DNA from: an uncultured Lachnospiraceae bacterium | GTDB lineage: Bacteria; Bacillota; Clostridia; Christensenellales; UBA1242 | Length of the DNA: 64,000 nt | Reading direction: 5' to 3' | NCBI GenBank assembly: GCA_964606505.1 | Contig: CAZSGM010000001.1 | Span: 113,588 to 177,587, forward strand | Shown: in pieces, positions 1,818-47,797 of the stretch | Layout: each line of letters begins with the position of its first letter | How positions within the stretch are numbered: position 1 is the stretch's first letter | Notes under the pieces: model-generated | Seen by the model: the letters and a program-made list of their open reading frames with translations, nothing else | The model's database searches: none | Told to the model about the DNA's origin: nothing | Program-made: the position numbers and the translations under genes

Positions 1818-2621
1818 TGCGGGATATGAAAATTAAATCATATTAAATAAATTTATTTGTTAGATAAAATAATTATAAATAAAATTAATATATTTTAATT
1901 ATAATTATAAATTTATTAATCATAAATAGGATTATATTAATTACAAATGGGGATATAATTATTAATTAATTATCAATAAAAATACATTAATTAATAATAA
2001 GCATATTCAATTGATAACAAGTATATTTAATTAATAATGAACGCAATTAATAAATATTATTAATAATTAATAGACATATTAAATAATAATTGAGTAATTT
2101 TACTTAATAAGTAATTATTATTTAATTAAAATAAGTAATTAAAACAATAAATTAATATTAATTAAATAATTAAAATATCAATAATAAATAAAATATTAAT
2201 AATAATTGTTTAGTAATTAAATTAATAAATAAAAACCTTATCAATTTAATCGGGGAATAAAAATTTATTTAATTAATTAATAATAATTTAATTAATTAAA
2301 TCAGTAAAATCAATAAAAAAAGTGCGAAAAATCTATATTTTTCACACTTTTTTTGTATTTATTTTTTACTAATATTTATATTTATTTCATAATTACTTAT
2401 TTATTATTAAACTATAATAATTCTTCTAATAATTAACTACATTATTTTTATAATTAATTATTATGTTTTTTCTAATAATTTATTTAATTTTGCATTTATT
2501 ATTTTTTAATTTAATAAACAAATTATAATTGTGGTTAATAAATACAATTAATTATTTTGTGTTTATTAATTAAATATTTTAATAATTATTTAATTGCTCA
2601 TTATCTGTATTTTTTATTCAG
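1818..2621. repeat. ~800-bp extremely AT-rich low-complexity spacer built from degenerate TTAATTAAT/AATAAT words
   Basis: By direct reading there is almost no G/C apart from one hairpin. It lies between convergent genes. Confidence 0.8.
2314..2355. terminator. Bidirectional intrinsic terminator
   Basis: Stem AGTGCGAAAAAT/ATTTTTCACACT (one mismatch) with loop CTAT, an A-run upstream and T6 downstream. Confidence 0.6.
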
Positions 2622-3101
2622 TTATTTGCGCGCATTAAAAATGCAGTTTTTTATTAATTGCAAGTTGGCGGGGGTGATGTGCTTTTTTTCGACGGGGAAT
2701 GCGGAGACTCTGTTAACAAAAAGGAAGAGGTAGTCGGAACTCTCCTTGACTTTTTCAATTTGCGAGTAAAGCACGCGAACGGCGCCAAGGTTTTCCGACT
2801 GCTTAAATGTTACGATTGTAATACCCGTTTCGTCGAACTGATAAATGTTGACGCTGTTTTCTTCCATTGGGCGTTTGTACATCTTGGTTAATGCGCTTAA
2901 GTATACGATTCCAAAACCAAGCGGGAGCGCAAACGCGAGCAGCCAAACCGTCCAGCCGGTTTCATTAAAAATGAAATCGCTAACTAGGTACGTAATCACG
3001 CCTGCCGTGCCAATAATGGTAGCCAGCCACGCGCCGATGTAGAGTTTTTTTGTCATTGACTTGTAAATGCCATTAGTTAAAACTGTTGTTGCTTCTATCA
3101 T
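2622..3101 (-). CDS. Small membrane protein, YcxB-like (two TM helices plus a C-terminal soluble domain)
   Basis: 159-aa ORF with two hydrophobic helices (WLATIIGTAGVITYLV, WTVWLLAFALPLGFGIVYL). The family assignment is from memory only. Confidence 0.55.
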   Translation of the reverse strand: MIEATTVLTNGIYKSMTKKLYIGAWLATIIGTAGVITYLVSDFIFNETGWTVWLLAFALPLGFGIVYLSALTKMYKRPMEENSVNIYQFDETGITIVTFKQSENLGAVRVLYSQIEKVKESSDYLFLFVNRVSAFPVEKKHITPANLQLIKNCIFNARK

Positions 3102-3116
3102 AATAAATTCCTTATT

Positions 3117-4379
3117 TTATTCATTGGTGGGTTTTGTTAGGTGTGTCAGTGAAATGAGAATACCGAGTTTGCCGTATTCGTAAGTCAGTCCGCCCTGCAT
3201 ATACGCGGTGTATGGTGGGCAGATGGGCCCGTCGCAGCTAAGTTCAATTGTTGAGCCTGAGATAAAACTCCCGCTCGCCATAATCTCCTCGTGTGGATAC
3301 CCCGGCATTGGGCTTGGCATAAGCGTTACAAAGTTTTCGAGTGCGACGCCCTTTTGTATCCCGCGGCAAAACTCAATCAGTTCCTCCGCTGAGTGTAGGC
3401 GGATTGTCTGCACAATGTCCGCTCTTTCGTCGTCGAAACGCGGGCTGACGTCGTAACCAAGTTTTTCGAGCAGGCGGCTCGCGAGCGCCATAGTTTTTAG
3501 GCTCGACATAACGACGTTAGGCGCGTGATAAACGCCCTTGAAAAACGACAGCGTTTGGTTGAGGTTCGCGCCGATGTCCTTGCCGACGCACGGCGCAGAA
3601 AAACGTTCCGCAACATCGTTGACGTATTCAGCCTTGCCGACAATGTAACCCCCTGTTTTGGCTTGCCCCGCGCCGAGGTTTTTCATTAGTGAGCCGACCA
3701 AAATGTCCGCGCCAACTTCGGTAGGTTCGCGTTTTTCAACAAAGTCTCCGTAGCAGTTGTCGACCATAATAATGACGTCCTTATCAACCTCGCGAATTGC
3801 GGCGCAGACGCGCTCAATTTTCTCAACGCTGAGGCTTAGGCGTGAACTATAACCGCGGGAGCGTTGGATTTCAACCATTCTGACGCGTTTTTTTTGCAGA
3901 CGCGCAATAATGGCAGGGATGTCGAAGTCGTCGTTTACAAGGTCGATTTGTTCAAAACTTATCCCGTGCGCCTTGAGTGAGTTGCGGCTGTCGCCCGTAA
4001 GCCCGATTATGCTCTTGAGCGAGTCGTAAGGTTCGCCCGTGATTGAAAGCAGTGTGTCCCCGTGTTTGAGCAGCCCGAAAAACGTGAGCGAAAGCGCGTG
4101 CGTGCCCGACATAATTTGCGGGCGGACGAGCGCATCCTCGGTGTGGAAAATCTGGCTGTAAACGCGTTCAAGTTTTTCGCGCCCAATGTCGTAGTAGCCG
4201 TAACCCGTGTTTTCGCAAAAGTCTGTGCAGGTAAGTTTTACGTCCCCAAACGCCTTTAAAACTTTCGCGCTATTAAATAAGCAAACCTCTTCAAACTTTT
4301 TGAATGTAGGTTGCAAGTCCTGCTCCGCCTGCGCGCAGAGCGTCAATAATTCTTCTGAAATATCTAATTCGTTGTACAT
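3117..4379 (-). CDS. ynbB: PLP-dependent methionine gamma-lyase-family protein (YnbB / 'aluminium resistance' family)
   Basis: 420 aa. The N-terminal GYGYYDIGREKLERVYSQIF...ALVRPQIMSGTHAL pattern and length are typical of this family. Confidence 0.8.
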   Translation of the reverse strand: MYNELDISEELLTLCAQAEQDLQPTFKKFEEVCLFNSAKVLKAFGDVKLTCTDFCENTGYGYYDIGREKLERVYSQIFHTEDALVRPQIMSGTHALSLTFFGLLKHGDTLLSITGEPYDSLKSIIGLTGDSRNSLKAHGISFEQIDLVNDDFDIPAIIARLQKKRVRMVEIQRSRGYSSRLSLSVEKIERVCAAIREVDKDVIIMVDNCYGDFVEKREPTEVGADILVGSLMKNLGAGQAKTGGYIVGKAEYVNDVAERFSAPCVGKDIGANLNQTLSFFKGVYHAPNVVMSSLKTMALASRLLEKLGYDVSPRFDDERADIVQTIRLHSAEELIEFCRGIQKGVALENFVTLMPSPMPGYPHEEIMASGSFISGSTIELSCDGPICPPYTAYMQGGLTYEYGKLGILISLTHLTKPTNE

Positions 4380-4708
4380 TTTTGTTCCTTTTTAGTGTTT
4401 TATTTTAATTTTGTAAATATGATAACATATTTTTAAAAATAAGTAAATGAATTGCACACAAATTAATTTTTTTGCGCGGCGGGTGTAACCTTTTGCTGTT
4501 GCGGGCGCGCGGTTGGTGTTTTAGGAACTACTTGAGTGGATGTTTTAGTTCGGTTGAGTTTTGTAGTTGAATGGGGTGTGGCGGCTCGGCGGCGGTTTCT
4601 TTGTTTGCGCGGCTGGTGTGGGAATTTGGACGCGAGTGCGGCGGCAACTTTGGGGAGTTTAAGTTTTGCTAGTAAATTTAATAGCCTAGCGTTTGCGTGG
4701 GCGCGGTG

Positions 4709-6815: not shown

Positions 6816-7559
6816 ATGGCGAAAGTTGCGATGGTTACGGGGGCAAGCCGCGGGATTGGAAGAACGACGGCGCTGGAGTTTGCAAAGAATGGGTATGATG
6901 TTGTGGTTACTTACTTTGAAAACGCGGCGCTCATTGAGGGCGTGCGCGAGGAAGTTGAGAAACTGGGGCGCAGGTGCCTTGCGTTTCAGTGCGACATATC
7001 GGATGAGGAGCGCGTCAAGGAGATTGTTTACAAGGCGGTCAAGGAGTTCAAAAAAATTGACGTGCTCGTCAACAACGCGAGTATTGCAAACGACGCGCTG
7101 TTTGGGCAAAAAAGCGTTGAGGACTTTAGGCGTGTTTTGGACGTTAACTTGGTCGGGACGTTTATTGTCAGCAAAAACGTCGGGGAGTTTATGCTCGAAA
7201 ACAAAAGCGGGAAGATTATCAACATTGCGAGTACAAACGGGATAAATACTTATTACCCTATGTGCGTTGACTACGACGCGTCTAAGGCGGGCATAATTTC
7301 GTTGACGCACAATTTGGCTATGCAGTTTGCGCCCTACATAACAGTGAACGCCGTCGCCCCTGGGTTTATCGCGACGCAAAGCGAAATCAAGGATATGTGC
7401 GAGGAGTTTATCAAGTCGGAAGAGGGAAAAATCTTCTTAAAGCGCGCAGGAACAGAAGAGGACGTTGCAAACTTGGTTTTGTTCTTGGCGTCAAATAAGG
7501 CAAATTTTATCAACAATGAAGTTATCCGCATTGATGGCGGAATGTACGGCGCGTTCTAA
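6816..7559 (+). CDS. SDR-family oxidoreductase, FabG-like
   Basis: TGASRGIG cofactor motif, YDASKAG catalytic motif, NAVAPGFI; 247 aa. Confidence 0.85.
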   Translation: MAKVAMVTGASRGIGRTTALEFAKNGYDVVVTYFENAALIEGVREEVEKLGRRCLAFQCDISDEERVKEIVYKAVKEFKKIDVLVNNASIANDALFGQKSVEDFRRVLDVNLVGTFIVSKNVGEFMLENKSGKIINIASTNGINTYYPMCVDYDASKAGIISLTHNLAMQFAPYITVNAVAPGFIATQSEIKDMCEEFIKSEEGKIFLKRAGTEEDVANLVLFLASNKANFINNEVIRIDGGMYGAF

Positions 7560-7795
7560 CGCTTGCTCGGCGCAACCTCTATATGCGGTCGCGCTACAAC
7601 ACTCGCTTTGAGCAATCTCAGTTTGCGAATTGCTAAACATTTACACGTGGTGCAGGTAGCACAAAAGGGCGGAATTTAAACACTTGCACGCGGGTGCGCG
7701 TCTGCGCAGTTAGTAATGTAATTCATTTAAGTGTACGGCGCGCTAAAACACTTGCACGCGGGCGCAGGAGTTGTTTTTTTTTGAATATAAAATTA

Positions 7796-7838
7796 AGGTT
7801 ATCCACAATGGGTGCAATTTTGTGGATAACCCTTTTTT
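7796..7838 (+). terminator. Hairpin + T6 whose stem is a pair of inverted perfect DnaA boxes
   Basis: GGTTATCCACAA (7796-7807), 11-nt loop, TTGTGGATAACC (7819-7830), then CTTTTTTG. Confidence 0.6.
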
Positions 7839-7954
7839 GTATTTGTCGCGATTGTTTATGTGTAACCCACTTTGCTTTATTGTACGAGTTTGCGCTTTTA
7901 CATAATGAAAAATATTGGTGTTAAGCAACTTAAATATGCGCGGTGGCAAATATT

Positions 7955-7990: not shown

Positions 7991-8040
7991 ATTATTCCTT
8001 TTGTTGGGGTGTCGTGCTTGGATTTGGTGCACTTGTCGGG

Positions 8041-8330
8041 TTTTGTCGCAAATTGTTGAATTTTGACACATTTTGCCAAATCTTGTCAAACTTTGTCAAA
8101 ATTTGGGAGAATATGTCAAAATTTGTAGAATAATGTCAGATTGTGTCAAAATTTGTAGAAATTTGTCGAAAATTTTTAAATTCTGTCGAAATTTAAAATA
8201 TTTTGTCGATTTATAAAATAAATTGTAGAATTATAAAATATTTTGTCGAAAATAATAACATTTTGTCAAAATTTGTCGAAAGATTAAATAATTTGTAGAA
8301 ACTTGTTGAAACGTGTCAAATTTGTCGAAA
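8041..8330. repeat. Array of ~20 TTGTC[AG]AA / TTGTAGAA words in a strict 10-bp register
   Basis: Read directly. The motif falls at the same offset in consecutive 10-nt blocks over ~290 bp. A 17-mer TGTCAAAATTTGTAGAA occurs twice. Confidence 0.8.
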
Positions 8331-8517
8331 AGCAAAAAATAGTAAAGCAGACGGCGCGCGAGAAGTGCTGGGTGTGCGGCGTGTTTAGATTGCAGTGGCA
8401 GACGGGAATTGCGGCGGGTGGGTTTTGATTGGTGCGGGTAAGGCAAACGGCATTGCGGCGAGTGCCACGATTGCAGAGGGGAAGTGCTTTGATTGGTGCG
8501 GGGGTTATTCAATTTGT

Positions 8518-12250: not shown

Positions 12251-12952
12251 ATGTTTCCAATACGACAATCGTGGTTTGATTTGCTGAAGGGGGAGTTTAG
12301 CAAGGACTACTACAGGGATTTGACGAGGTTTTTGACCGACGAGTACAGCAGGCGCACAATTTATCCTAAGCCTGAGAATGTTTTTAACGCACTGAACTAT
12401 GTTCCGTACAGCGATGTTAAGGTGGTTATAATTGGGCAAGACCCCTACCACCAGCCAAATCAAGCGAACGGGCTTTGCTTTTCTGTGCAGCCCGAGGTTG
12501 ACATTCCGCGCAGTTTGCAAAATATCTACAAGGAGTTGCGCGACGACTGTGGGTGTTACATCCCCGACAACGGCGACCTAACTAAGTGGGCAAAGCAAGG
12601 AGTGCTGCTGCTCAACAGTGTGTTGACCGTCAGGCACGGGCAGGCAAACTCGCACAAAGGCAGGGGTTGGGAAAACATTGTTGCGAAAGTGCTGGAACTT
12701 CTTAACAACCGCGCCGCCCCCGTAATATTTTTGCTGTGGGGCAACAACGCCAAGGCACTCGCGAAAAACATCGACGCGACCAAACACTTTGTGCTCACGT
12801 CCGCCCACCCAAGCCCGCTCTCTGCGAGCAACGGCTTCTTCGGCTGCAAGCACTTCTCAAAAACAAACGAGATTTTAAAACAACTCGGCAAAACTCCAAT
12901 CGACTGGCAAATTGAAAATATAAGGAACGACAATGGAAAACAAACAATTTAG
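12251..12952 (+). CDS. ung: Uracil-DNA glycosylase
   Basis: GQDPYH and HPSPLSA motifs, 233 aa, AAGGAG RBS. Confidence 0.95.
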   Translation: MFPIRQSWFDLLKGEFSKDYYRDLTRFLTDEYSRRTIYPKPENVFNALNYVPYSDVKVVIIGQDPYHQPNQANGLCFSVQPEVDIPRSLQNIYKELRDDCGCYIPDNGDLTKWAKQGVLLLNSVLTVRHGQANSHKGRGWENIVAKVLELLNNRAAPVIFLLWGNNAKALAKNIDATKHFVLTSAHPSPLSASNGFFGCKHFSKTNEILKQLGKTPIDWQIENIRNDNGKQTI

Positions 12953-13541
12953 TCATTACTTTACAAACGACGACGCGACCCATAACGAGCACGTAATTTA
13001 CGCGCGCTTTAATGATAAGGAATTTAAGTTTTTGACGCAAGACGGCGTTTTCTCCAAAAGCAAGTTAGATGACGGAACACTATTTTTGCTAAAAACCGTC
13101 ATTGAAATGGAACACCCAAGCGGCGCGGGGTTAGACCTCGGTTGCGGTTACGGAACTATCAGCGTAATACTGCCAAACTTTTGCGACGTGCAAATGACGG
13201 CTTGCGACGTAAACGAGCGCGCCTGCGAACTTACAAAACATAATTTGCAAAGCAACAACGTAAGCGCGCAAGTGCTTGTTTCGGACGTGGCGCAAAATGT
13301 GGATAAGTCCGACTTTGATTTTGTTATAACCAACCCGCCAATTAGGGTTGGAAACGCGATTTTGTTCCGTTTTTTTGAGGAAAGTTATCAAAAATTGCGG
13401 GATAACGGTGCATTTTATGCAGTATTACGTAAAAAACAGGGCGCGGAAACGTATATGAAAAAAATTGCGAGCATTTACGGAAATTGCGAAGTTTTGGACA
13501 AACATAAGGGTTACGTGATTTGTAAAGCGGTAAAAAAATAA
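12933..13541 (+). CDS. Class I SAM-dependent methyltransferase, RsmC/MTS-domain-like
   Basis: LDLGCGYG SAM motif and VITNPPIRVG motif IV. Overlaps the ung stop by 20 nt. Confidence 0.8.
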   Translation: MENKQFSHYFTNDDATHNEHVIYARFNDKEFKFLTQDGVFSKSKLDDGTLFLLKTVIEMEHPSGAGLDLGCGYGTISVILPNFCDVQMTACDVNERACELTKHNLQSNNVSAQVLVSDVAQNVDKSDFDFVITNPPIRVGNAILFRFFEESYQKLRDNGAFYAVLRKKQGAETYMKKIASIYGNCEVLDKHKGYVICKAVKK

Positions 13542-13600
13542 TTTTTGCGTTAAAAAAATATTACAGTAAAAAAATAATTATTGCAGCTAAAAATTATTAT

Positions 13601-13865
13601 TGTGGTAACAAATGTTGTAGTAATAAATTTTGCAGTAAAAAATATTATAGTAACAATTATTGTGGATAAGTTCATAAAAGAAAAATTTAAAAAACAAAGA
13701 AAAAATTATATATAAAAAACAGTTAACAGAAATAAAAAAACAACAAACAAAAACAAAAAATGTGGACAATTAAAAATTGGTACAAAAAAAGTTGATAAGT
13801 AAAAATGTGGATAACTAAAAAAATCGACATTACAAAGAATGTGGAAAAGTAAAAAATGTGGATAA
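13601..13865 (+). promoter_or_regulatory. Co-oriented DnaA-box cluster in an AT-rich spacer upstream of rsmA
   Basis: Perfect TGTGGATAA at 13661, 13806 and 13857. One-mismatch boxes TGTGGACAA (13761) and TGTGGAAAA (13840). Preceded by ~14-bp degenerate TT[GA][CT]AGTAA repeats (13545-13660). Confidence 0.6.
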
Positions 13866-13940
13866 CGTCTTTGCGTTGTCGCCGTGCAAATATGGCGGTG
13901 GGAAACAGCGCGGAGAGTTGTAGAGCAAAGAAGAGGAATT

Positions 13941-14774
13941 ATGATTACAAATTTTGGATTTAAGAAAAAATACGGGCAAAACTTTATTAGCGATAAAAAT
14001 TTATTGAACGCGATTGTTGCCGACGCGGGCATTGACGAGCAAACTCAAGTTTTGGAAATTGGCGCGGGCGCGGGCACACTAACTGCGGCACTTGCCGAGA
14101 AAGCGGAAAAAGTTGTGTCGGTGGAGATTGATGAGGAGTTGAAGCCGTACCTTGAACTTGTAAAACTCTCGCACCCCAATGTTGAGTTTGTGTTCGACGA
14201 CTTTATGGAACTTCCGAGGTACACGCTCGAGGAGCACTTTACAAAACCATTCGCAGTTGTTGCGAACCTGCCGTACTACATAACGACGCCGATAATCTTT
14301 AGGTTTCTTGAAGAGGGGTTTAACGTAAGTTCGCTAACATTGATGGTACAAAAGGAAGTTGCGGAACGTTTTTGCGCGGCACCCGACAGCAAGCAGTACA
14401 GCGCGGTTAGCGTCGCTTTGCAGAGTATGGGCGACATAAAAACTACGCGCGTTGTCGACAGGACTATGTTTTTTCCGCAACCAAAAGTGGATAGCGCGGT
14501 CGTTAATTTTAAAATCGACCTCAACAAATTCGACATTCAAGACCGCAAATTGTTTGGGTCGCTTGTTAAGGTCGCGTTTGCGTGGCGCAGAAAAATGCTT
14601 GTTAACTGCCTGCAAATGGGGTTTGACTTGAAGCGCGACGAAGCGGCAACGGTTATTGAGCGCGCGGGCTTACCTAGCAATGTGCGCGGCGAAAGCCTTT
14701 CGGTTACCGACTTTATTTCGCTTGCAAACGTTATCGACGATTTTGCGCACGCTAGAATATATGTTAAAAATTAG
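13941..14774 (+). CDS. rsmA: 16S rRNA (adenine1518/1519-N6)-dimethyltransferase
   Basis: KKYGQNFISD, EIGAGAGTLT and ANLPYYITTPI motifs. The start was moved to ATG 13941 (MITNFGFKK), which has an upstream AGAGGA. Confidence 0.9.
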   Translation: MITNFGFKKKYGQNFISDKNLLNAIVADAGIDEQTQVLEIGAGAGTLTAALAEKAEKVVSVEIDEELKPYLELVKLSHPNVEFVFDDFMELPRYTLEEHFTKPFAVVANLPYYITTPIIFRFLEEGFNVSSLTLMVQKEVAERFCAAPDSKQYSAVSVALQSMGDIKTTRVVDRTMFFPQPKVDSAVVNFKIDLNKFDIQDRKLFGSLVKVAFAWRRKMLVNCLQMGFDLKRDEAATVIERAGLPSNVRGESLSVTDFISLANVIDDFAHARIYVKN

Positions 14775-16764: not shown

Positions 16765-19427
16765 ATGAATAAAAGCGAATTTGAAAATGTGAAAAAGTTG
16801 GGGGGGGGGGGTATTTAGTTGCTAAAAATAGCGGCTTAACCACTCGAAATGATGCGGACACCTGCAAAAATATGCAGGATAACCCCCATTTTTTGCAATA
16901 TTTGCAAAATTGTGAAAATGTGCAACATAATGGTAATTTCACAAAAAAAATCACTCAAAACAATGCAAAATTGCAATGCAAAAATTCATTTAAAAATAAT
17001 GACGAATTAAATTTAACAAATAATGATTTATCTATTAATTCGCACAATCAAAATAATCGCAAAAATAATAGTGTATCAAATGCGACTAGCAAGTGCGCAC
17101 AAAAAGATACATTAAAGAATATTGCGAGTGAAAATTTTACTCCTTTTAAAAATAGTTATAATAATGTAAGTTATAAAAATAATGCAACTCAAAATGCTAG
17201 TATGAGTTGCAAAAATAGTGTAAGTTGTAAACGCGATGTAAGTTGCCAAAGTAAGGCGGGTTACAAAAGCACAGCGTATTATGAAAACGGGATAAACAAC
17301 AAAATTTGCACGACAAAGTGTTCCGCTACGACAAAAATTTGTTTGTGGATTTTCTTGTTTGTTGCGTGCCTCGCGGTTACGATCGGGTTTGGCTACTTTT
17401 GCGGAAGCAACGGCAGCCTCAAGGTTGCACCTGAAATTGAAACCGCCTCAGCAGCAGGCGAAACTTGGAGCGGTAGCGGCACGCAAGCCGACCCGTACCA
17501 AATTTCAAATTATACCGACTTGCTCGCGCTTTCTACCGCTTGCAACACGCCAACAAGTGGAACAACTTACAATCACTATCAAAGTGTGTATTTTAAATTG
17601 ACAGCAGATATAACAATAGCAGCGGCGGACTTAAATAATACAACGACCTCCACAACTTGGACGCCAATCGCCTGCGATCCAACAGGGGTTAATTATGCTA
17701 ACTGCTATTTTTCGGGTATTTTTGACGGAGATGGGCACACTATAACTTACGCGGGGGATGTAACTGTAAATGTCGGCGTTTCTACTGCTTCAAGTCCAAA
17801 TTTATATTATGGCTTGCTATTTGGATATGTTTTGGGCGACGCTAGTGATACTGCTAGTGCGACGTATGGAATTGTTAAAAATACCAACATAACATTCGGA
17901 GCCGCTAGTAGTTCAGCCACCGCTTTTACTTTGAAACTTGTTGCGGTTAGTTCCAATAACTGCATTGGAACGTCTCAAGTTGGTGGACTTGTTGGCCGTT
18001 TAAGCAATGGCAAGGTTTCACAATGCAAATTTAATGGTAAGCCATTTAATTTTACAGTTGAATGTGATAGTATAAGTGGTTGGGATCGTGGTTTTGCAGG
18101 AATTGTCGGATATACGTCAAGTTCCAGAGTGGACAATTGCGAATTTAATACCGATTATTCATTTTCGGATTTGCCTACTGGGATTTTAGAGGGCGGTGCA
18201 GCCGTAGTTGGGTATGCACCTAATAGCACAATCATCGAAAAATGCAAGGTAAATGGGAATGTAACATTTTTAAAAGAGGCTTCGGGAACTAATCGCGCAG
18301 AACTTGGTGGAATATTGGGGAGTGGCTCAGCAAATGTGAGCAATTGTGGTTTTTATGGTAACTTTGTTTGCAAGTGGCGGTCGGGTTCAGGGACTAAAGC
18401 GGGTGCAATTGCTGGGGGTGCTACTAATATTGAAAATTGTGTTATAGAGGGGGAAGTAACTTTAGGGGAAAAAGGCGGGGCTGCATCCTGCTCGGGGATA
18501 ATAGTCGGTAGCGCTACAAGTGTTTCAAATTGCTATGCTAATGTGAGCAATTCATCACTTTGTATGACTGGCACGGATGGTGAGTTTGGGATAATCGCAG
18601 GTAGTGTAACGAATATGAGCAATTGCGCAATAAATGTGCAATTAATTGATTTAATAAGGGCGACTAGCCTAGTATCCTATGCTAGTGGCACAGTAAACAA
18701 TTGTATAGCAATTGTGGATGTTGGGTCATATAGCGGGACTCTATATCCATTTTCTAATGGGTTTTATAATTGTGTAATAATAGCATCAGGGACAAATGTT
18801 ACTGCAGCGTACCCAATTAAATCCAATACCACCAACACCTCAGATACGACTAACGGGCTTTATTCACTAACATCAACTGACGCAAACCTTAGCGAGTTGA
18901 AAAGTAAAACCACCTATACATCGGGGTCAACTCATTTCACTTGGAACACTGACGGCGATGTTGCGGGGAGCACAACAGGTGGGCACGCGTGGGATTTTGC
19001 AAACACTTGGATGATTAACAGCACTATGAATGATGGGTATCCAACGCTGCAAATGCTGATAACATCCTACAACATCACGCTCAACGTAACCACTAATCTT
19101 AGCGGCTCCACCTTGGGAACAACCACAGGCTCAAGCGGTTCATCCTCAGCAACCGCCACGGCAAACCCTGCCGACCAGTTCATAATTTACCGCCTTGACG
19201 AGTCTGGAAACCTCGTCAACCAGTTTGTCGTCCGAAACGGCAGCACGGTTACCTTTGAAGTCGACAAAAACAAATCCTTTACTATAATGATTAACTACAA
19301 ACTTTATATGGTAACAACAATCGGAACCGAGTCGACAAACAAGAAAACATACACTCCAACTGCCGACACGACAATCGACATCGACATAACCGCCCCTTCA
19401 GGCGTCAACAACTGGATTGTTATTTAA
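16765..19427 (+). CDS. GLUG-repeat surface protein paralog A, interrupted at the 5' poly-G tract (phase OFF as assembled)
   Basis: AAGGAG RBS, then ATG 16765. The leader MNKSEFENVKKLGGGG hits TAG after the 12-G tract. The main frame (track ORF 16872-19427) is open back into the tract and fuses if the tract is 13 or 10 G. Architecture: Asn-rich N-region, TM helix ICLWIFLFVACLAVTIGFGYF, GLUG repeats, conserved C-terminal domain. Confidence 0.8.
16800..16811 (+). repeat. Homopolymeric G12 tract (candidate slipped-strand phase-variation site)
   Basis: Counted directly: the final g of block 16791-16800 plus 11 g. Confidence 0.9.
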
Positions 19428-38684: not shown

Positions 38685-39365
38685 TTAGCGGGCGGGGATT
38701 GTTGCGAGCACGGCGGACGTGATGCAGAGGCAGATTTTCTTTTGGTAATCGTGGGATAAAAGCAGATGTTCTTCGTCGGGGTTAGAGAGAAAACCGCACT
38801 CGACTAAGATTGAGGGTTTATCGACACACTTGAGCATAAACAGGTCGCCTGCTTGTGCTTCGCTTCGCGCGTAGGGGAGTTGTTTCTTGAAAACGGCTTG
38901 CAGTGTTTCGGCGAGTGCTTTGCCTGTGCCTTTTTCGTCGTCGTAAAACACTTGCGCGCCGTGCGAGGAACTTGCGGCGTACTTGTTCATATGTATGCTG
39001 ATGACCGCGTCGGGGGCGGCGTCAACAATGATTTGCCTGCGCCGTTGCATATCTTCGCGCTTGAAACCGTTTTTGTACTCGCTGTACAGCCCGCCTTTGT
39101 CCGAGCGCGTCATAACGACGGTTATTCCGTAATCCTCCATAACGCTCTTGAGCATAACGCAGTACTCAAGGTTGAGGTCGCTTTCAATTGTTCCGCTCGC
39201 GCCAACCGCCCCGACGTCAATCCCGCCGTGCCCCGCGTCCAAAACTACGGTTATCGCGCCAATCGGAACGGCGCTAGACGCTGCGACCTTCACGCCAAGA
39301 AAGGGAACTCCCAAGGCAAAAAACACCACCGCAACAACACTTGCAAACAACACAAACTTTTTCAT
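38685..39365 (-). CDS. N-acetylmuramoyl-L-alanine amidase (Amidase_3, CwlD-like)
   Basis: Signal peptide, LDAGHGGIDVGA, ISIHMN and ILVECGFLSNPDEE motifs. Confidence 0.9.
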   Translation of the reverse strand: MKKFVLFASVVAVVFFALGVPFLGVKVAASSAVPIGAITVVLDAGHGGIDVGAVGASGTIESDLNLEYCVMLKSVMEDYGITVVMTRSDKGGLYSEYKNGFKREDMQRRRQIIVDAAPDAVISIHMNKYAASSSHGAQVFYDDEKGTGKALAETLQAVFKKQLPYARSEAQAGDLFMLKCVDKPSILVECGFLSNPDEEHLLLSHDYQKKICLCITSAVLATIPAR

Positions 39366-39885
39366 CCCTCTCCCTCAAAACTCAACTTTCATATTATCCC
39401 CATTAATGCCGCCGCACGCTTGCGCTCGTGCCGCGCTCGTGCCGCGCTTGTTCTCGCGCTCGTGCCTGCACCCGCAACACTGTCATACGCTCGCGCCTGC
39501 GCCTATTAAAATCACTGTGCCCGCCGTGTGCGTGTCTCTATCAAAACCGCCACAGCCCGTTTTGCAACCGCGCGCATAAAACTCATTAAACCTGTGTGTG
39601 CACATCGCCGCAAGTTTGCTTGTTGCGACTTTTGCGCGCCTAAGTGCCACGTCTGCAACGCGCACGTTCGCGTGCATTTGATAAAAACGCCCGTCCGCTA
39701 ACCGCCCTAAATTGCGCCAATTGCCGCGAGTTGATTTATTGCGAGCTCTAAATGTCTGCCACGCGGCAACAAAAAAAGACAAACAACTACAATTTATTAT
39801 ATTTGAGTTGACTGCCCAATATGAAAGATTTAGTTAGAAAAAATGTTTGACTAAATTTGAGAATTTGGTTAAGTACTTAACTAAA
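39221..39885. repeat. Direct repeat DR1, left copy (665 bp): amidase codons 1-48 plus 520 bp upstream
   Basis: Collinear with 43138-43802 at a constant offset of 3917. Six substitutions, all within the first ~135 bp; the rest is identical. It ends 4 bp after the perfect 14-bp palindrome GTTAAGTACTTAAC (39868-39881). Confidence 0.9.
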
Positions 39886-40134
39886 TATAAAAGTATAAAA
39901 TCTCCTAACAAAATAATTGCTGAAGGTTTAATTCCCCAAAAAACAAAGTTTATTTGCCACCAAATATTGAAATTATTTTTAACTTTTAAGATTAATATAA
40001 AGAAATTTTAAAAAACTTTGCAAATAATGATACATAAGTATTGACTTTTAAAAATTACATGTTAAAATGTAAGAAAAAGGATTGAAAAGAATTTTATCTC
40101 TTTCAGTCTTTTTACATTTAGGTGGAGGTGAAAT

Positions 40135-40554
40135 ATGGAAAAATTGAGAAAAGAAATCCTAGAAAACAATAGTAAAGTTGCGCTTGAAATAAAAAGAATA
40201 AATGACGAAATATTGCAAATCCCAAATTATTTAACAGAAGAAGAAAAAGAGACATATGGGGAAATAATAAAAGATTTAAAAGAGAGCATTAAATACAGAT
40301 TATCTCGCAGTGATGTTGAACTAATTTGGCAATATTGTCAATTGAAAATTATGCGAGATAGGGCATGGAGAGAATATAATAAAAATCCAGATAGATATAT
40401 GCGAATTGTGACTGGAATTTGTAGTGACGGGAAAACTCCCAAAGTTATAGTTAAAGAAAATGAACATTACAAAACTTTGATAGATTGCAATAAACAATTA
40501 GAGAAAGTATTAAAAGATTTAAGATTGACTCCAGAGATGAGAAGGGGGAAATAA
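40135..40554 (+). CDS. Phage terminase small subunit, P27-family-like
   Basis: 139 aa. The pattern IPNYLTEEEKETY...DVELIWQYCQ...LRLTPEMRRG matches the P27 TerS layout (from memory). GGAGG RBS. Confidence 0.6.
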   Translation: MEKLRKEILENNSKVALEIKRINDEILQIPNYLTEEEKETYGEIIKDLKESIKYRLSRSDVELIWQYCQLKIMRDRAWREYNKNPDRYMRIVTGICSDGKTPKVIVKENEHYKTLIDCNKQLEKVLKDLRLTPEMRRGK

Positions 40555-40614
40555 TAAAGTCAACGGCTTTTGGTAAATAAAAGGTTATGTTATAATAAAA
40601 ATGGAGGTGTTTAT

Positions 40615-41004
40615 ATGTTTACAGGTTATTTTGGGAAAGTTAAAAGTTATCCCCAAGATAAGGGCTATAGATTTGTGTCTATTGCTAGATTTAATAAGTT
40701 TTGGAATGGAGACGAATATAAAAGGCTTGCTCCACCTGCTGAAATTATTAAAATTGAAGACGAGGAACTTTATACGGATTTATATTATGAAAAAGTTTTA
40801 AATAAACTCAGCCCACAAAAAGTGTATGATGAATTAGGAGATAATGCAGTACTTCTTTGTTATGAAAGATGGTCAGACATAAAAGAAGAGAAAACTTTTT
40901 GTCATAGACGAATTGTTGCAAAATGGTTGGAAGATAATTTAGGAATAAAGGTAGAAGAATTAGAAAATGAGAACAAAAACGATAATGAACAATTGCATTT
41001 TTGA
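40615..41004 (+). CDS. DUF488-like protein
   Basis: 130 aa with an LLCYERW....FCHRRIVAKWL motif typical of DUF488. GGAGG RBS before ATG 40615. Confidence 0.55.
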   Translation: MFTGYFGKVKSYPQDKGYRFVSIARFNKFWNGDEYKRLAPPAEIIKIEDEELYTDLYYEKVLNKLSPQKVYDELGDNAVLLCYERWSDIKEEKTFCHRRIVAKWLEDNLGIKVEELENENKNDNEQLHF

Positions 41005-42181
41005 TGTTGTAAAAACCAATGATTTTGAAAAAGTTTTTGTTTACGCATCAGAAAAATTAGAATTAGAAAAATTAATATATAAATTTACATCGTCCCCGAT
41101 TATTGGTGGCGATGTTGATTTTTGTAATGTTTTGTTTGGGAAATATTTTAGCGATAATAATGATTTAGAATTAGGTAAAGAAATTTATGATGATTTTAAA
41201 TTGGATTCAAATTACATTTTAAGTAACGTTCAAAAACTTGCCTTGTCAATACTATATAAATCATACAGACCACAGCACATAACTGAGCATAATAAAAGAC
41301 TCTTCAAGAATGTGATTAAAAATAAAGACAAACTAATTGACTCAATTTCCAAACAAATAAGTGAAATATCATTACATTTACAAGCCTTTAGAGAATGCAG
41401 CATAGAGGAATTTATAAAAGATATTTCTTATAAGGATTTGCTAGTTATTGATAATCGTAGACTTAATTTTATTGATGATAAATTAATTCGGCAATTGCTT
41501 GATTTTAATATTAAATTTGTCATTTTATCTAAAAAAGATTTATTAACCATAAAACATAATCAAATTTTAAAATCACAAAACTTAAATGCTTACTCCAATA
41601 TTAAAATAAAACCAAAGATAATATCATGTAAGACAAAGACTAATATAGTCCAAAAATTATTTAGTACTATTGAAGATGAAAATATTAAAGATGTAGAAAT
41701 CAAGCAATTAACGTTGGTACAATTTAATGCGTTACGACAAAAATACATGAGTAAACAAATTCATTTTTGGGGAACTCCAAAAATTTGTTGCGGTTTATTT
41801 ACTGACAATAAATTATTTGGAGCTTTTGGATTAACAAATGACTATAGGAATTCACCGCCTAGTGAAATTGAACAACCATGCGTATATTTATTGTCGGATT
41901 TTGTGACGAATTCGAAGATAAGAAAATTGAGCCGATTAGTATTATATTGTTTATTAAGCAAAGAAGTGAAATTATTAGCAGAACGATTATTAAATAAGGA
42001 AATAAAATCAATTTATACTAATGTGTTTACGAAAAATATGTCTTCTATCAAATACAGAGGATTGTTTACATTACAAAGCAGAAATCAAAGGCAAGACGGA
42101 AGTTATAATTTAACATACTTTTCGACAATGGGGGAATGGGATTTAAAGGAGGGATTTGAATTGTGGAAACAGAGATTATAA
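40967..42181 (+). CDS. Hypothetical protein (404 aa), unknown function
   Basis: Long ORF in an AT-rich context. Overlaps neighbours on both sides, suggesting an operon. No motif recognised. Confidence 0.55.
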   Translation: MRTKTIMNNCIFDVVKTNDFEKVFVYASEKLELEKLIYKFTSSPIIGGDVDFCNVLFGKYFSDNNDLELGKEIYDDFKLDSNYILSNVQKLALSILYKSYRPQHITEHNKRLFKNVIKNKDKLIDSISKQISEISLHLQAFRECSIEEFIKDISYKDLLVIDNRRLNFIDDKLIRQLLDFNIKFVILSKKDLLTIKHNQILKSQNLNAYSNIKIKPKIISCKTKTNIVQKLFSTIEDENIKDVEIKQLTLVQFNALRQKYMSKQIHFWGTPKICCGLFTDNKLFGAFGLTNDYRNSPPSEIEQPCVYLLSDFVTNSKIRKLSRLVLYCLLSKEVKLLAERLLNKEIKSIYTNVFTKNMSSIKYRGLFTLQSRNQRQDGSYNLTYFSTMGEWDLKEGFELWKQRL

Positions 42182-43029
42182 AAATAAACCCACGAGATAT
42201 TAAATTATTAAAAGTAAATGCCAGATATATGAAACCTGAAGAATACGAAAAACTTGTTTCAAATATTAAAAAAGATGGACAACTAACATCTGTTCCATTT
42301 TGTTTTTATAATGAAAATCACGAAATTGAGGTTTTGTCTGGTAATCATAGGGTTATGGCATCTATCGATGCCGGACTTAATGAAATTGAAGTTATGCTAT
42401 GCAAGGACAAGTTATCAAAAGAACAAGCATTGGCTATTCAATTAAGTCATAATTCTATTTCTGGTCAAGATGATGAAGAATTGTTAAGAAGATTATACGG
42501 AGAATTAGAAAGTTTAGAATATAAGGAATATTCGGGTTTAACAGATGAATTCATCAATTATTGTAAAGAGATTGAAAAAGATTTTAAAGTACCAACTTTA
42601 TCATATCAAGCACTAAATTTATTATTTCTTCCCGAAGAAATTGAAGAGATAAAACAAGTTCTTGAAAGCATACCCTATTTATTAAGCTCTAACCACATCT
42701 TGTCAAACAAGAAGGATTATGACAACTATTTAGAATCCACAACGACAATATCAAAGTGTTTAAATATTAAAAATCCATCAACAACTTTTCTTGCCATGAT
42801 TAGATTAGCAAAAGAAAATATAGACAAATTGAAAGAACTTGCACTTAACAATGAAGATATTGATTATATTCCACTTTCCATAATTCTAGGACGAAGCGAT
42901 ATAAACAAAGATGATGCGATGATTATTGATAAAGCCTTAAACAAACTGATAAGCAAAGGTGAGATTAAAAAAAATAATAAGGAGAAGGGTTTGGCAATAT
43001 TGGCTAATTTATATCTGGAACATAAATAA
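42163..43029 (+). CDS. ParB N-terminal (ParB/sulfiredoxin nuclease-like) domain protein
   Basis: INPRDIKLLKVNARYM...VLSGNHRVMASIDAG pattern. GTG start after GGAGGG. Confidence 0.7.
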   Translation: METEIIKINPRDIKLLKVNARYMKPEEYEKLVSNIKKDGQLTSVPFCFYNENHEIEVLSGNHRVMASIDAGLNEIEVMLCKDKLSKEQALAIQLSHNSISGQDDEELLRRLYGELESLEYKEYSGLTDEFINYCKEIEKDFKVPTLSYQALNLLFLPEEIEEIKQVLESIPYLLSSNHILSNKKDYDNYLESTTTISKCLNIKNPSTTFLAMIRLAKENIDKLKELALNNEDIDYIPLSIILGRSDINKDDAMIIDKALNKLISKGEIKKNNKEKGLAILANLYLEHK

Positions 43030-43058
43030 GTATTCTATTTTATTGTGAACACACAAAA

Positions 43059-43097
43059 GCCATATATCCGATTTTGAGATATATGGCAATTTTTTTT
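43059..43097 (+). terminator. Intrinsic terminator at the right end of the cassette
   Basis: GCCATATATC / GATATATGGC stem, 9-nt loop, AA then T8. Confidence 0.7.
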
Positions 43098-43137
43098 GAA
43101 AAAATTAAAATAATTGACAGTCTTTACTTGGCATCGC

Positions 43138-43282
43138 TCCCGCCGTGCCCCGCGTCCAAAACTACGGTTATCGCGCCAATCGGAACGCCGCTAGACGCTG
43201 CGACCTTCACGCCTAGAAGGGGAACTCCCAAAGCAAAAAACGCCACCGCAACAACACTTGCAAACAATACAAACTTTTTCAT
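43138..43282 (-). pseudogene. Orphan 5' fragment (48 codons) of a second amidase allele
   Basis: Minus-strand translation is MKKFVLFASVVAVAFFALGVPLLGVKVAASSGVPIGAITVVLDAGHGG, then it diverges. It differs from the intact gene by 3 nonsynonymous and 3 synonymous changes. Confidence 0.8.
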
Positions 43283-43802
43283 CCCTCTCCCTCAAAACTC
43301 AACTTTCATATTATCCCCATTAATGCCGCCGCACGCTTGCGCTCGTGCCGCGCTCGTGCCGCGCTTGTTCTCGCGCTCGTGCCTGCACCCGCAACACTGT
43401 CATACGCTCGCGCCTGCGCCTATTAAAATCACTGTGCCCGCCGTGTGCGTGTCTCTATCAAAACCGCCACAGCCCGTTTTGCAACCGCGCGCATAAAACT
43501 CATTAAACCTGTGTGTGCACATCGCCGCAAGTTTGCTTGTTGCGACTTTTGCGCGCCTAAGTGCCACGTCTGCAACGCGCACGTTCGCGTGCATTTGATA
43601 AAAACGCCCGTCCGCTAACCGCCCTAAATTGCGCCAATTGCCGCGAGTTGATTTATTGCGAGCTCTAAATGTCTGCCACGCGGCAACAAAAAAAGACAAA
43701 CAACTACAATTTATTATATTTGAGTTGACTGCCCAATATGAAAGATTTAGTTAGAAAAAATGTTTGACTAAATTTGAGAATTTGGTTAAGTACTTAACTA
43801 AA
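43138..43802. repeat. Direct repeat DR1, right copy (665 bp)
   Basis: See the left copy. Confidence 0.9.
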
Positions 43803-43854
43803 ATTGTTGGTATATATGCACAAATAATTGCGCAAAAAAGGTCGAAAACGCGAG

Positions 43855-43914
43855 TTATCCACAAAGTTATCCACATTTTCGCAAAAACTGTGGATAACTT
43901 CCCACTTTTCCACA
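43855..43914. promoter_or_regulatory. Tight DnaA-box cluster
   Basis: Perfect TTATCCACA at 43855 and 43867, perfect TGTGGATAA at 43889, and TTTTCCACA at 43906. Confidence 0.6.
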
Positions 43915-43937: not shown

Positions 43938-44061
43938 GTAGAAAGGGAGTTTCGGGGGGTGATGCAAATAAAAAAAATCTAAGTAATTTACAATCGAACT
44001 ATTTAGATACTAAAAACAAACTAATTTCAAGTGAAATGTTTTTTTGCTAGGCACAAAACTT
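43938..44061. repeat. Direct repeat DR2, copy a (~124 bp)
   Basis: Matches 45974-46096 with a handful of substitutions/indels. Contains a G6 run and the hairpin ATCTAAGTA-14 nt-TA[TC]TTAGAT. Confidence 0.85.
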
Positions 44062-44321
44062 CGCGCGCCAACCGCTCGAAACGTAAAATTATCGCCAACT
44101 GGCAATTGTTTGGAACGCAAAATATCACTAATTGCGAATTGTGTCCGCAGCAAAATGTTGCTGGCGGCGTACCGTGCGCGATGTAATAGACTGACCGCTT
44201 CAAACCCTTCCGCGTTGCGCAGAAATCCATCATTTGACCCTGCAACCTCACGCTTTCGACTTGTACACGACCTTAAAAACGCAAACAACTTGTAGTTTTT
44301 GTTTGCGTTTTTTAAATTGAG

Positions 44322-45540
44322 CTAAATATACCAAACTGGAACAATCAAAGTATCCTTATTAAGGGCTGTTAATGTTTCTTTCATACAAATGATTGCGCCG
44401 TGCCCGACCTCAACTTGCGCGTTTTTTAGAATGTCGAAGTTTTTAACCATAGCAGTATTTGGGTTGGACGTTTTTTTGATTTCAATTGGTTGTAAAACAT
44501 TGTTTGATTCAAGTATAATATCAATTTCGCGTTGTAGTTTATCTCGGTAGTAATACATAAATGGTTCTTTGCCTGTATTTAGATACGACTTGCGAATTTC
44601 AGCGACGATATAGTTTTCAAGTAGCGCGCCGTTTATAGAGCCGTTTTGCAAAATTTCCGCGCTTGAATATCTTGTTAAATAGCAAACCAGCCCTGTATCA
44701 AAAAAGTAGAGTTTGGGAGTTTTAACAACCTTCTTTAAAATATTATTGGAATATGGGTGTAAATAAAAAATAATTTCTGATTTTTCAAGCATTCCCAACC
44801 ATCTTTTGACCGTGTCATCGCTGACTTCAATATCTACAGCGATTGAATGGACATTTAACTCCTGTCCAACCCTGCACGCCACAGCTCGAATAAAGTCAAT
44901 AAATTTTGTGTCGTCTTTAACTGCTATCTCATCTTTAACATCTCGCGACAAATATGTTTGCAGGTAACTAGAGTAATAAATATCTCTGTTTGTGTATTTT
45001 CCACTTGAAAGTGCGGGCAATCCACCGTTCCAAATTCGCGCAAAAATCTCGTCAACTCCCGCGGGTGTGTTGTGTTCTGAACGCAACTGCAGGGTTTCTA
45101 AGCAAACCTCAAATGGCTGCAAGTCGTTTTTTGCAAACAACTCGTGTTGCGACAGTGAAGTCAAATTCAAGATTGCAATGCGTCCTGCCAAACTCTCTTG
45201 CGCAAGCGTCATTAACTTGTAACTTTGCGACCCAGTCAGCCAGTAACTTCCCGCGTCCGCGCCGTTGTCTATCGCAATTTTTATACGAAAACAATTCGGG
45301 CGCATACTGAACCTCGTCAATCAAAACTGGTGGCTTGTGTAACTGCAGGAACATCTCGGGGTCGCTTCTTGCGAGGTTTCGCTCTTGCAAATCGTCAAGC
45401 GTAACCCGTTTTCGTTCTCCGTCGATATGCTCAAGCATTGTACTTTTCCCAACTTGCTTTGGTCCCGTAATCAAAATGCACGCGTACTCTTTTGTTAGGT
45501 TCTTAATGACGTCCTCCATATCTCTTTTGATGTAATCCAT
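44322..45540 (-). pseudogene. AAA+ ATPase (DUF4143 family) split by a frameshift
   Basis: Two overlapping minus-strand ORFs (45109-45540 with the GPKQVGKST Walker A; 44322-45320 with the rest). Reading ...LIDEVQYAPELFSY then KIAIDNGADAGSYWLTGSQ is restored by removing one T from the T5 run at 45278-45282. A TTGACA-17-TAAAAT promoter lies on the minus strand at 45722-45694. Confidence 0.8.
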
Positions 45541-46934: not shown

Positions 46935-47797
46935 TTAATTATTTTCGTCGTTTTCGTTGTTGGTGGTTAATGGGGTGGATGTTTTGGTGTTCAGTAGTTG
47001 CGGGTTGTTGGCGTTTATTGGCGTAACGACCGAATGCCCGAGTTTGTTTTCAATGCCCGTTCTTGCGTTTTTCGCGATTTGTCCGCCATCCCTTGCAACT
47101 TTTTTGTTTTCGTCGAGCGACTGTGGCTGCAGTTGTTTACTAATGGCGGTCGTTGAAACCTCTGCAGCATATTGAGAACCAATTCAATGTCGGTCATATT
47201 GTCGCGCAGGTTTTCCTTTTTGAGCCCTTTGAGTTGTTTGTATTCTTGAACGGACAGCCCCGACCACGCCCTCGTCATCTCGTTTGTTAGGATTGCGTAA
47301 TCCTTTTCTTGCGTTATGCCTCGATCTTGCCATTCTGCCGTGAGTTCTTTGCGTGTCTTGATTGTCATCATCCTTTGCGTAATCCAATCCTCAGGATAAC
47401 CCTTTGCGCGGTAGGTGGCAATTGCCCTGTCTATCACTTTTTGCGGGTCAGCAATTTCGTCTAGGCGCTCGCTCCCGACTTGCGCAAGCCAAACTTTAAA
47501 CGGTTCTGCTTTTGGGGAAGGGATAGATTGAATGAGGCGCAACAACCATTTCGTATTTAACAAATCGGTTTTATATAATTTACCATCTGGAGAAGGTAAT
47601 TTCAGTTGCACGAGATTTTCGTGCAACTCACTTCCTTCTTGTTTTAGTTTTCTTTTTAAGTCGCTCCAATAGTTGCGAGGTGTCTTGCTGTCGCTAAAAA
47701 CAGCGCAAACGTCAACGACGGAAAAATACCAATCTTCCTCTTGCGCGTTCCACTCTGTTCGAATTTTCTTGTCTTCAAAAATTTTGATGTTTGGCAT
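46935..47797 (-). pseudogene. BRO-N domain (DinD-like/antirepressor-like) gene with a 1-nt frameshift near 47165
   Basis: The N-terminal 210 aa are intact (KIRTEWNAQEEDWYFSVVDV..., SPKAEPFKVWLAQVG, KGLKKENLRDNMT). After ...LVLNML the family-typical continuation AEVSTTAISKQLQPQSLDENKKVARDGGQIAKNARTGIENKLGHSVVTPINANN... is found in the adjacent frame, running to a stop at 46935-46937. Confidence 0.75.

Follow-up and report, generated by a model that had tools for sequence, protein, structure and literature searches.

Why should a 64-kb stretch of clostridial DNA hold nine perfect copies of the DnaA box, when shuffled versions of the same sequence hold on average fewer than one? The stretch (64,000 nucleotides of contig CAZSGM010000001.1 from an uncultured bacterium, analyzed in full and hereafter called the window) carries most of these boxes in three intergenic clusters: cluster A behind a short-chain dehydrogenase/reductase (SDR) gene, cluster B in front of rsmA, and cluster C in the ancestral upstream region of an amidase gene. 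The answer we favor, and consider probable if well short of certain, is that the three clusters are extra-origin DnaA-binding sites of a Christensenellales-like Clostridium, of the same kind as the DnaA-box clusters (DBCs) of Bacillus subtilis.

Perfect DnaA boxes are concentrated in three intergenic clusters

Counting both strands, we find 9 perfect TTATCCACA/TGTGGATAA 9-mers in the 64-kb window. In 100 dinucleotide-preserving shuffles of the window, which served as the null model, the mean is 0.43 and the maximum 4, and none of the 100 reaches 9. Eight of the nine boxes fall in three intergenic clusters; the remaining ~63 kb holds one.

7799 (+) and 7821 (-): perfect boxes of cluster A, which has no one-mismatch boxes
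13298-13306 (-): lone perfect box, within the gene of the RsmC-like methyltransferase (12933-13541)
13661 (-), 13806 (-) and 13857 (-): perfect boxes of cluster B, with one-mismatch boxes at 13761 (-, TGTGGACAA) and 13840 (-, TGTGGAAAA)
43855 (+), 43867 (+) and 43889 (-): perfect boxes of cluster C, with a one-mismatch box at 43906 (+, TTTTCCACA)

These positions agree with an earlier note on this DNA, which had counted at least eight perfect boxes where about 0.5 would be expected, and had described three perfect boxes and one near-perfect box at 43855-43914, three perfect and two one-mismatch boxes, all co-oriented, in the 13601-13865 spacer, and an inverted pair forming the stem of a terminator-like hairpin. 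The ninth box is the one at 13298. Related loci for comparison were reached through methyltransferase homologues (L092, 97% identical; L090, 81%; L087, 79%), and L001 was added. L092 has a box within its methyltransferase gene too, and none is found at the homologous place in L001; a single box such as this is compatible with chance.

The enrichment is local and reflects no genome-wide word bias, because outside the clusters the window does not exceed background and the commonest 9-mers are of another kind: of its 60 most frequent ones, all those shown are A/T-rich or homopolymer words. The earlier note had held that a similarly high density of the 9-mer across the genome would undo the observation. 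We looked for it in the window and in 1.28 Mb of related Clostridia (80 rsmA loci, which define the relatives' background) and found background density outside the clusters: dispersed boxes with at most one mismatch number 29 in the window (28 one-mismatch and 1 perfect) versus 24 per 64 kb in the relatives, and the whole 1.28 Mb contains 26 perfect boxes. When clusters are scored by giving 2 for each perfect and 1 for each one-mismatch box within 300 bp, A scores 4, B 8 and C 7. The same cluster score is reached in only 2 of the 80 related rsmA loci, namely in L068 (a Blautia oriC) and in L001 (the orthologue of cluster A), and three clusters per 64 kb are therefore far above the norm of the group. 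An 11-mer, AGTTATCCACA, recurs in clusters A, B and C.

An inverted box pair forms a conserved terminator-like hairpin

Cluster A consists of two perfect boxes that face each other across a short loop.

6816-7559 (+): SDR/FabG-like gene with NCBIfam matches of the 3-oxoacyl-ACP reductase type; cluster A is its downstream hairpin
7797-7839 (+): cluster A, TTATCCACA (7799-7807), 13 nt, TGTGGATAA (7821-7829), inverted; a 12-bp stem, then a T-run

The segment 7797-7831 folds with -20.7 kcal/mol (z = -4.9) and has a T-run on its 3' side. With a G+C-containing stem-loop, a T-run and a position downstream of a gene, cluster A has the features that define a predicted intrinsic terminator. All four related loci (L092, L090, L087 and L001) carry the same inverted pair behind the orthologous SDR gene, the SDR proteins of L087 and L090 being 79-81% identical to that of the window. 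Three of the four distinct hairpins fold with -19.4 to -24.7 kcal/mol (z from -4.9 to -9.1); that of L092 is weaker (-14.2 kcal/mol, z = -1.8). When the five loci are aligned, the columns without variation are GTTATCCACA, TGTGGATAAC, a brief A-run upstream and the T-run, including TTTT directly behind the stem, and the loops and flanks cannot be aligned. Over this distance, a stem retained for its pairing alone should have accumulated compensatory changes; the boxes of cluster A have instead been held invariant across the clade and still match the universal DnaA consensus.

Convergent genes enclose the hairpin in L087, L001 and L090, where it is preceded by the A-run and followed by the T-run, as a bidirectional terminator would be. 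In the window the convergent gene has given way to a repeat array, and the hairpin has been kept. This array (8040-8330) comprises ~25-30 copies of the 10-nt unit TTTGTCRAAA with a regular 10-bp period, lies upstream of the gene for a 1155-aa MBG-domain protein, and yields 17 promoter-like matches versus 3 expected; it stands where L087, L001 and L090 carry the convergent gene, which encodes 691-701 aa.

Cluster C is a conserved box module upstream of an amidase gene

Cluster C lies next to a duplicated segment that brackets phage-type genes.

38685-39365 (-): CwlD-like Amidase_3 gene (TIGR02883, E = 7e-52, below the family cutoff), the ancestral neighbor of cluster C
39221-39885: direct repeat copy 1, 665 bp, containing the 5' end of the amidase gene and the region upstream of it, with a promoter-like site at 39825-39796 (-)
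39886-43137 (+): insert of 3252 bp, 27.5% GC, carrying genes of phage type (small terminase, phage GNAT-like, ParB-like)
43138-43802: direct repeat copy 2, with TTCATA-18-TATAAT at 43742-43713 (-) and a 52-aa amidase stub
43814-43822 (+): degenerate fifth box, ATATGCACA, homologous to TGTGCATAA at position 18818 of L087
43855-43875 (+): tandem double box, TTATCCACA-aag-TTATCCACA, with a 3-bp gap
43889-43897 (-): inverted box, separated from the tandem pair by 13 nt
43906-43914 (+): fourth box, TTTTCCACA, with 1 mismatch; its counterpart in L087 and L095 is TGTGGGTAA

Read on the reverse strand, the module of the window is TGTGGAAAA-8-TTATCCACA-13-TGTGGATAA-3-TGTGGATAA, and that of both L087 and L095 is TGTGGGTAA-10-TTATCCACA-13-TGTGGATAA-3-TGTGCATAA. 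Box order, orientation and the 13-bp and 3-bp gaps are common to the three loci, a further degenerate box follows the module in each of them, and in all three the module lies upstream of an orthologous amidase gene (the proteins of L087 and L095 are 73% and 70% identical to that of the window). The promoter-like sequence TTCATA-18-TATAAT, which matches at 10 of 12 positions, is directed toward the amidase gene, and cluster C lies ~110-170 bp upstream of its -35 element in repeat copy 2 of the window.

The two copies of the 665-bp repeat differ by 6 mismatches, all within 39271-39351 in the 5' coding part of the amidase gene. The boxes of cluster C start 53 bp past the end of copy 2. The earlier note had placed them immediately right of the insertion site; this position does not tie them to the mobile DNA. 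Because L087 and L095 have the same module, and because sequence similarity to L087 extends past the repeat boundary and reaches the promoter region, cluster C is ancestral chromosomal DNA that is older than the insertion, and the orthologous modules rule it out as part of the phage-like insert. The duplication and insertion have set the cluster 3.9 kb away from the intact amidase gene.

Several observations concern the surrounding DNA. The layout of 39221-43802 resembles a single-crossover integration of a ~3.9-kb circle, and public short-read assemblies break at the 665-bp repeat. Between the amidase promoter-like site and the ATG lie ~420 nt of GC-rich untranslated DNA (39366-39790) with four copies of GCGCTCGTGCC; the matching place in L087 and L095 holds a short AT-rich stretch only, well under 100 nt. 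Similar GCGC-rich non-coding blocks are located at 7560-7780, 8330-8500 and 44040-44290.

Cluster B is a tandem array in the spacer before rsmA

The boxes of cluster B are spread over an intergenic spacer that is largely made of repeats.

13542-13940 (+): spacer with cluster B, 400 bp, 25.6% GC, from the methyltransferase gene to the rsmA ATG at 13941
13553-13661 (+): array of a 15-nt repeat, ~7 copies of TTRYRGTAA type (Tandem Repeats Finder), ending beside the perfect box 13661-13669
13670-13760 (+): A-rich stretch between the two arrays, 14% GC, 70% A
13755-13866 (-): cluster B array, in which a 16-17-nt unit, AAAAAATGTGGATAACT, is repeated head to tail 6.9 times (Tandem Repeats Finder), with boxes at 13761 (1 mismatch), 13791 (2 mismatches), 13806 (perfect), 13840 (1 mismatch) and 13857 (perfect)
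13941-14774 (+): rsmA (ksgA), TIGR00755 with 244 bits; 277 aa in public contigs

We considered the 15-nt TTRYRGTAA repeats as degenerate DnaA boxes and rejected them, as each deviates from the box at 3-4 positions and L092 lacks the entire block. Words of the form GTCGAAA were likewise rejected as a co-motif of the boxes, with which they have no specific association.

The spacer differs strongly among related loci.

L087 and L001: no spacer, the methyltransferase gene overlaps rsmA; no boxes
L090: 160 bp; no boxes
L092: 264 bp; 2 perfect and 3 one-mismatch boxes
Window: 400 bp; 3 perfect, 2 one-mismatch and 1 two-mismatch boxes

The box arrays of the window and of L092 (97% identical) differ in size by exactly one 17-nt box unit, and their perfect boxes are not the same ones. 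Cluster B is thus a young, slippage-prone and species-specific array, in a spacer that has arisen between two genes which once overlapped. The loci may be read as a natural series of site birth, leading from no spacer through a box-free AT-rich spacer and a 5-box array to a 6-box array, and cluster B may be a DnaA sink, or a regulator of rsmA, in the making.

The clusters are best read as extra-origin DnaA-binding sites

DnaA-box clusters and DnaA-regulated promoters, both put forward in the earlier note, have gained ground: clusters A and C stand at orthologous positions with their boxes kept, C lies upstream of the promoter-like site of the amidase gene, and C contains a double box. We infer DnaA occupancy, titration and regulation at the clusters from their sequences. 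DnaA would bind the predicted sites cooperatively, and the clusters would jointly buffer the pool of free DnaA as a sink. At the local level, cluster C would modulate the amidase promoter, cluster B would modulate read-through or initiation into rsmA, and cluster A would modulate termination or act as a roadblock.

Several points weigh against this reading. Cluster B is absent from relatives at ~80% identity, and it may equally be a neutral minisatellite that has amplified one box. In the pairwise alignment with L087, the ~135-bp segment around cluster C is conserved throughout, boxes and rest alike, and box-specific selection is therefore less clear at C than at A. The boxes of cluster C are still perfect though the insertion has uncoupled them from the intact amidase gene, and a purely local promoter role therefore fits awkwardly. 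Finally, the more distant amidase orthologue in L097 (60% identical) has other neighbors, and no boxes are found there.

A rival view is that the boxes are incidental, A and the core of C being simply terminators or palindromic hairpins, B a slippage minisatellite, and the resemblance to DnaA sites without function. In all five loci cluster A indeed makes a good terminator fold followed by a T-run, cluster B gains and loses units and adjoins an unrelated 15-nt array, and AT-rich tandem repeats are numerous in this genome. We nevertheless consider an incidental origin unlikely, since the stem of cluster A is identical at all 10 + 10 positions and equals the DnaA consensus while its loop is randomized, since one 11-mer recurs at all three clusters, and since cluster C has a non-palindromic tandem pair and no T-run. 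The chance expectation of 0.43 boxes per window argues in the same direction.

The topology of cluster C resembles DARS cores

In E. coli, head-to-head DnaA protomers on DARS1 and DARS2 (DnaA-reactivating sequences) release ADP and regenerate ATP-DnaA. To our knowledge, DARS elements have been described only in gamma-proteobacteria, in the context of Hda and RIDA (regulatory inactivation of DnaA). Could cluster C, and perhaps the inverted pair of cluster A too, be a site of this type, on which head-to-head DnaA would exchange its nucleotide in the same manner? The two DARS cores of E. coli MG1655 read TTATCCACT-5-TGTGGATAA-3-TGTGTATTA and TTATTCACC-5-TGTGGATAG-3-TGTGAAGAA, with boxes I and II head-to-head across a 5-bp gap and box III in tandem to box II (PMC6868365). 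The core of cluster C on the reverse strand, TTATCCACA-13-TGTGGATAA-3-TGTGGATAA, has the same order and orientation, with box I inverted relative to boxes II and III, the latter forming a 3-bp-spaced tandem pair, and this arrangement is conserved in L087 and L095. It differs from DARS1 and DARS2 in that the inverted box is 13 bp away and not 5 (in the window, in L087 and in L095), which places it in a different rotational phase, and in that the host is a Firmicute; no Hda homologue is known in B. subtilis (PMC3245932).

Groups of three to four boxes in mixed orientation are moreover common in promoters and origins. A scan of metagenomes for AGTTATCCACA-N12-14-TGTGGATAACT gave more than 120 matches, of which 80 loci were fetched. 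Among the matches listed, 58 of the 80 loci have a third box inside the gap, as in dense, multi-box packing of the origin type; 29 of the 80 lie beside dnaA, and others beside trmE, gidB, dnaN or gyrA. Since the pattern is found mostly in dense clusters of origin type, the inverted pair alone is not distinctive. Among the 51 dnaA-less loci listed, 12 lie between convergent genes, and pairs whose gap is free of boxes and which are at once a terminator occur repeatedly, in several taxa among the matches listed, in a scan run without a control pattern. Taken together, these findings make a DARS-type function of cluster C or of the A pair improbable. Quite improbable, too, is the wider proposal that the module of box, 13 bp, inverted box, 3 bp and tandem box is a Firmicute counterpart of DARS, to which the pair in the SDR terminator may be related. 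If true, it would be the first DARS-type element outside the gamma-proteobacteria, in a lineage without the Hda/RIDA system that DARS is thought to balance.

The metagenome scan yielded two further observations. Among the matches listed, the families of the flanking genes give no general link to amidases, apart from L133. On this distant metagenome contig, a symmetric 2+2 module at 4459-4518, TTATCCACG-3-TTATCCACA-14-TGTGGATAA-3-TGTGGAAAA, abuts a putative promoter: 25 bp separate its end from a TATAAT, and an Amidase_3 gene, whose product is 39% identical to that of the window, starts ~50 bp away. This single case hints that DnaA and this amidase may be linked recurrently. Nine human-gut loci (L110, L112, L114, L116, L120, L131, L154, L156 and L180) share a similar three-box module with the gap ATATCCACATCAT or close variants of it, and in 7 of the 9 a divergent gene pair surrounds the module. 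The flanking proteins among the matches listed include 8 of response-regulator and 6 of AraC type, most likely from those nine loci, and the module may represent a promoter that is regulated by DnaA and conserved in a different gut lineage.

A replication origin at any of the clusters is not supported

In Firmicutes, oriC usually lies beside dnaA and dnaN. The earlier note had listed proximity to an origin, or a relic of one, among its explanations, and had remarked that dnaA and dnaN were not in view. The remark agrees with our scan, in which none of the 40 main open reading frames (ORFs) of the 64-kb window matches either family. An origin or origin relic, for which cluster B would be the most plausible site, is not supported. 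Cluster B resembles a chromosomal oriC in pairing several co-oriented boxes (five with at most one mismatch and one with two) with a 90-bp AT-rich stretch of 14% GC. Triplets of the form NAN can be read upstream of the box at 13661, and in such AT-rich sequence they are expected by chance; a search rule for DnaA-trios has been published (PMC8287927), and we judge it to be easily satisfied by chance in AT-rich DNA.

L068 (Blautia), our positive control, provides a genuine clostridial origin on the same scale: two clusters with scores of 16 and 7 flank dnaA, and dnaN and recF follow (tblastn). In the window, GC skew is positive on either side of A and B and about zero on either side of C, with no change of sign at any cluster, and cumulative GC skew rises monotonically from 1 to 42 kb and has no minimum in the window, which puts the origin outside it. 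A search for parS returned only a chance-level match with 3 mismatches, and clusters A and C have no AT-rich unwinding region. Unlike that of an oriC, the position of cluster B is not conserved: its spacer is absent from L087 and L001, and that of L090 has no boxes, in a comparison with genomes whose flanking proteins are 79-81% identical, and cluster B is therefore new and not a relic. A proximity of rsmA to the origin could speak for an origin here, as rsmA is found within a few kb of oriC or dnaA in some Clostridia. In L068, oriC, dnaA, dnaN and recF (2424-4419) lie only 6-7 kb upstream of rsmA, and in L105, an AT-rich metagenome contig, dnaA directly adjoins rsmA (332-2223). Because of these two arrangements we conclude that rsmA-origin linkage exists in some Clostridia; it does not in the clade of the window. 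An origin or origin relic at one of the three clusters is thus very unlikely.

Its distance of 53 bp from the repeat and the nearby ParB-like, Bro-N and AAA_14/DUF4143 genes might suggest that cluster C serves the neighboring phage- or plasmid-like element as replication origin. This is extremely unlikely, since L087 and L095 have the module without the insert, the homology crossing the repeat boundary marks the DNA as ancestrally chromosomal, and no replication initiator gene is adjacent.

Gene context of the window

By family scans, the window carries pnuC-like, efp, SDR/FabG-like, 1155-aa MBG-domain protein, ung, RsmC-like methyltransferase and rsmA genes in this order. Past rsmA follow many large proteins without family assignment, a tyrosine recombinase, dut, the CwlD-like Amidase_3 gene and the patch of phage-type genes. 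The best match of RsmA is 66% identical (one genome per species scanned), and the scan puts the window among metagenome-assembled genomes of uncultured Clostridia/Christensenellales. A Bacillus-like affiliation, which rsmA had suggested, was rejected on the strength of the family and genome scans. Rfam and tRNA scans of the window found nothing.

Three regions deserve mention in their own right.

30-1817 and 16872-19427: members of a family of ~850-aa paralogues with 33-43% mutual identity, of which at least 5 copies lie on the 321-kb source contig
1818-2620: intergenic stretch of 800 bp, 7-14% GC, full of tandem repeats of AATTAATAA type, with no perfect DnaA box and one one-mismatch box (2530)
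44322-45540 (-): AAA_14/DUF4143 ATPase gene, frameshifted into two overlapping ORFs and probably a pseudogene, adjoining a Bro-N anti-repressor-like gene (47015-47797) and the gene for a 2084-aa Big_2 protein

Comparison with known systems

The control of replication initiation is poorly known in Firmicutes other than Bacillus and unknown in uncultured gut Clostridia, and the loci described here provide three concrete candidate DnaA sites, two of them (A and C) conserved. If they are only ordinary DBCs, the main gain is the extension of a known Bacillus phenomenon to another order. Two traits are mildly unusual, namely the DARS-like topology of cluster C and a terminator made of a box pair whose very sequence is conserved, and the latter raises the question whether DnaA occupancy is coupled to transcription termination.

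The proposed sink recalls E. coli datA, a non-origin locus that contains several high-affinity boxes and lowers the initiation potential; datA acts through IHF-dependent ATP hydrolysis on DnaA. At the level of individual sites, a parallel in E. coli is the double DnaA box, two boxes in tandem 2-3 bp apart, an arrangement that is the best predictor of DnaA binding in that organism, whose genome holds only 32 perfect boxes (PMC11317965). The segment 43855-43875 consists of two perfect boxes with a 3-bp gap, a spacing that is conserved in L087 and L095. In contrast to the E. coli element, which is defined for E. coli DnaA only, the copy in cluster C sits in a larger module with an inverted partner.

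The best-fitting known system are the DBCs of B. subtilis. Six of them lie outside oriC; they are intergenic, some regulate their neighbors, and together they restrain initiation, and such clusters occur upstream of different genes in different species and in many Firmicutes are usually near oriC (PMC3245932, Ishikawa/Okumura). The clusters in the window differ in being smaller, with 2 to 6 boxes each, and in that one is the stem of a terminator and another a fast-evolving tandem array. They resemble the B. subtilis DBCs in consisting of consensus and near-consensus boxes, in their intergenic position away from dnaA, in standing beside different genes in different lineages, in the overlap of some with the promoters of their neighbors, and in that several lie close together on the chromosome.

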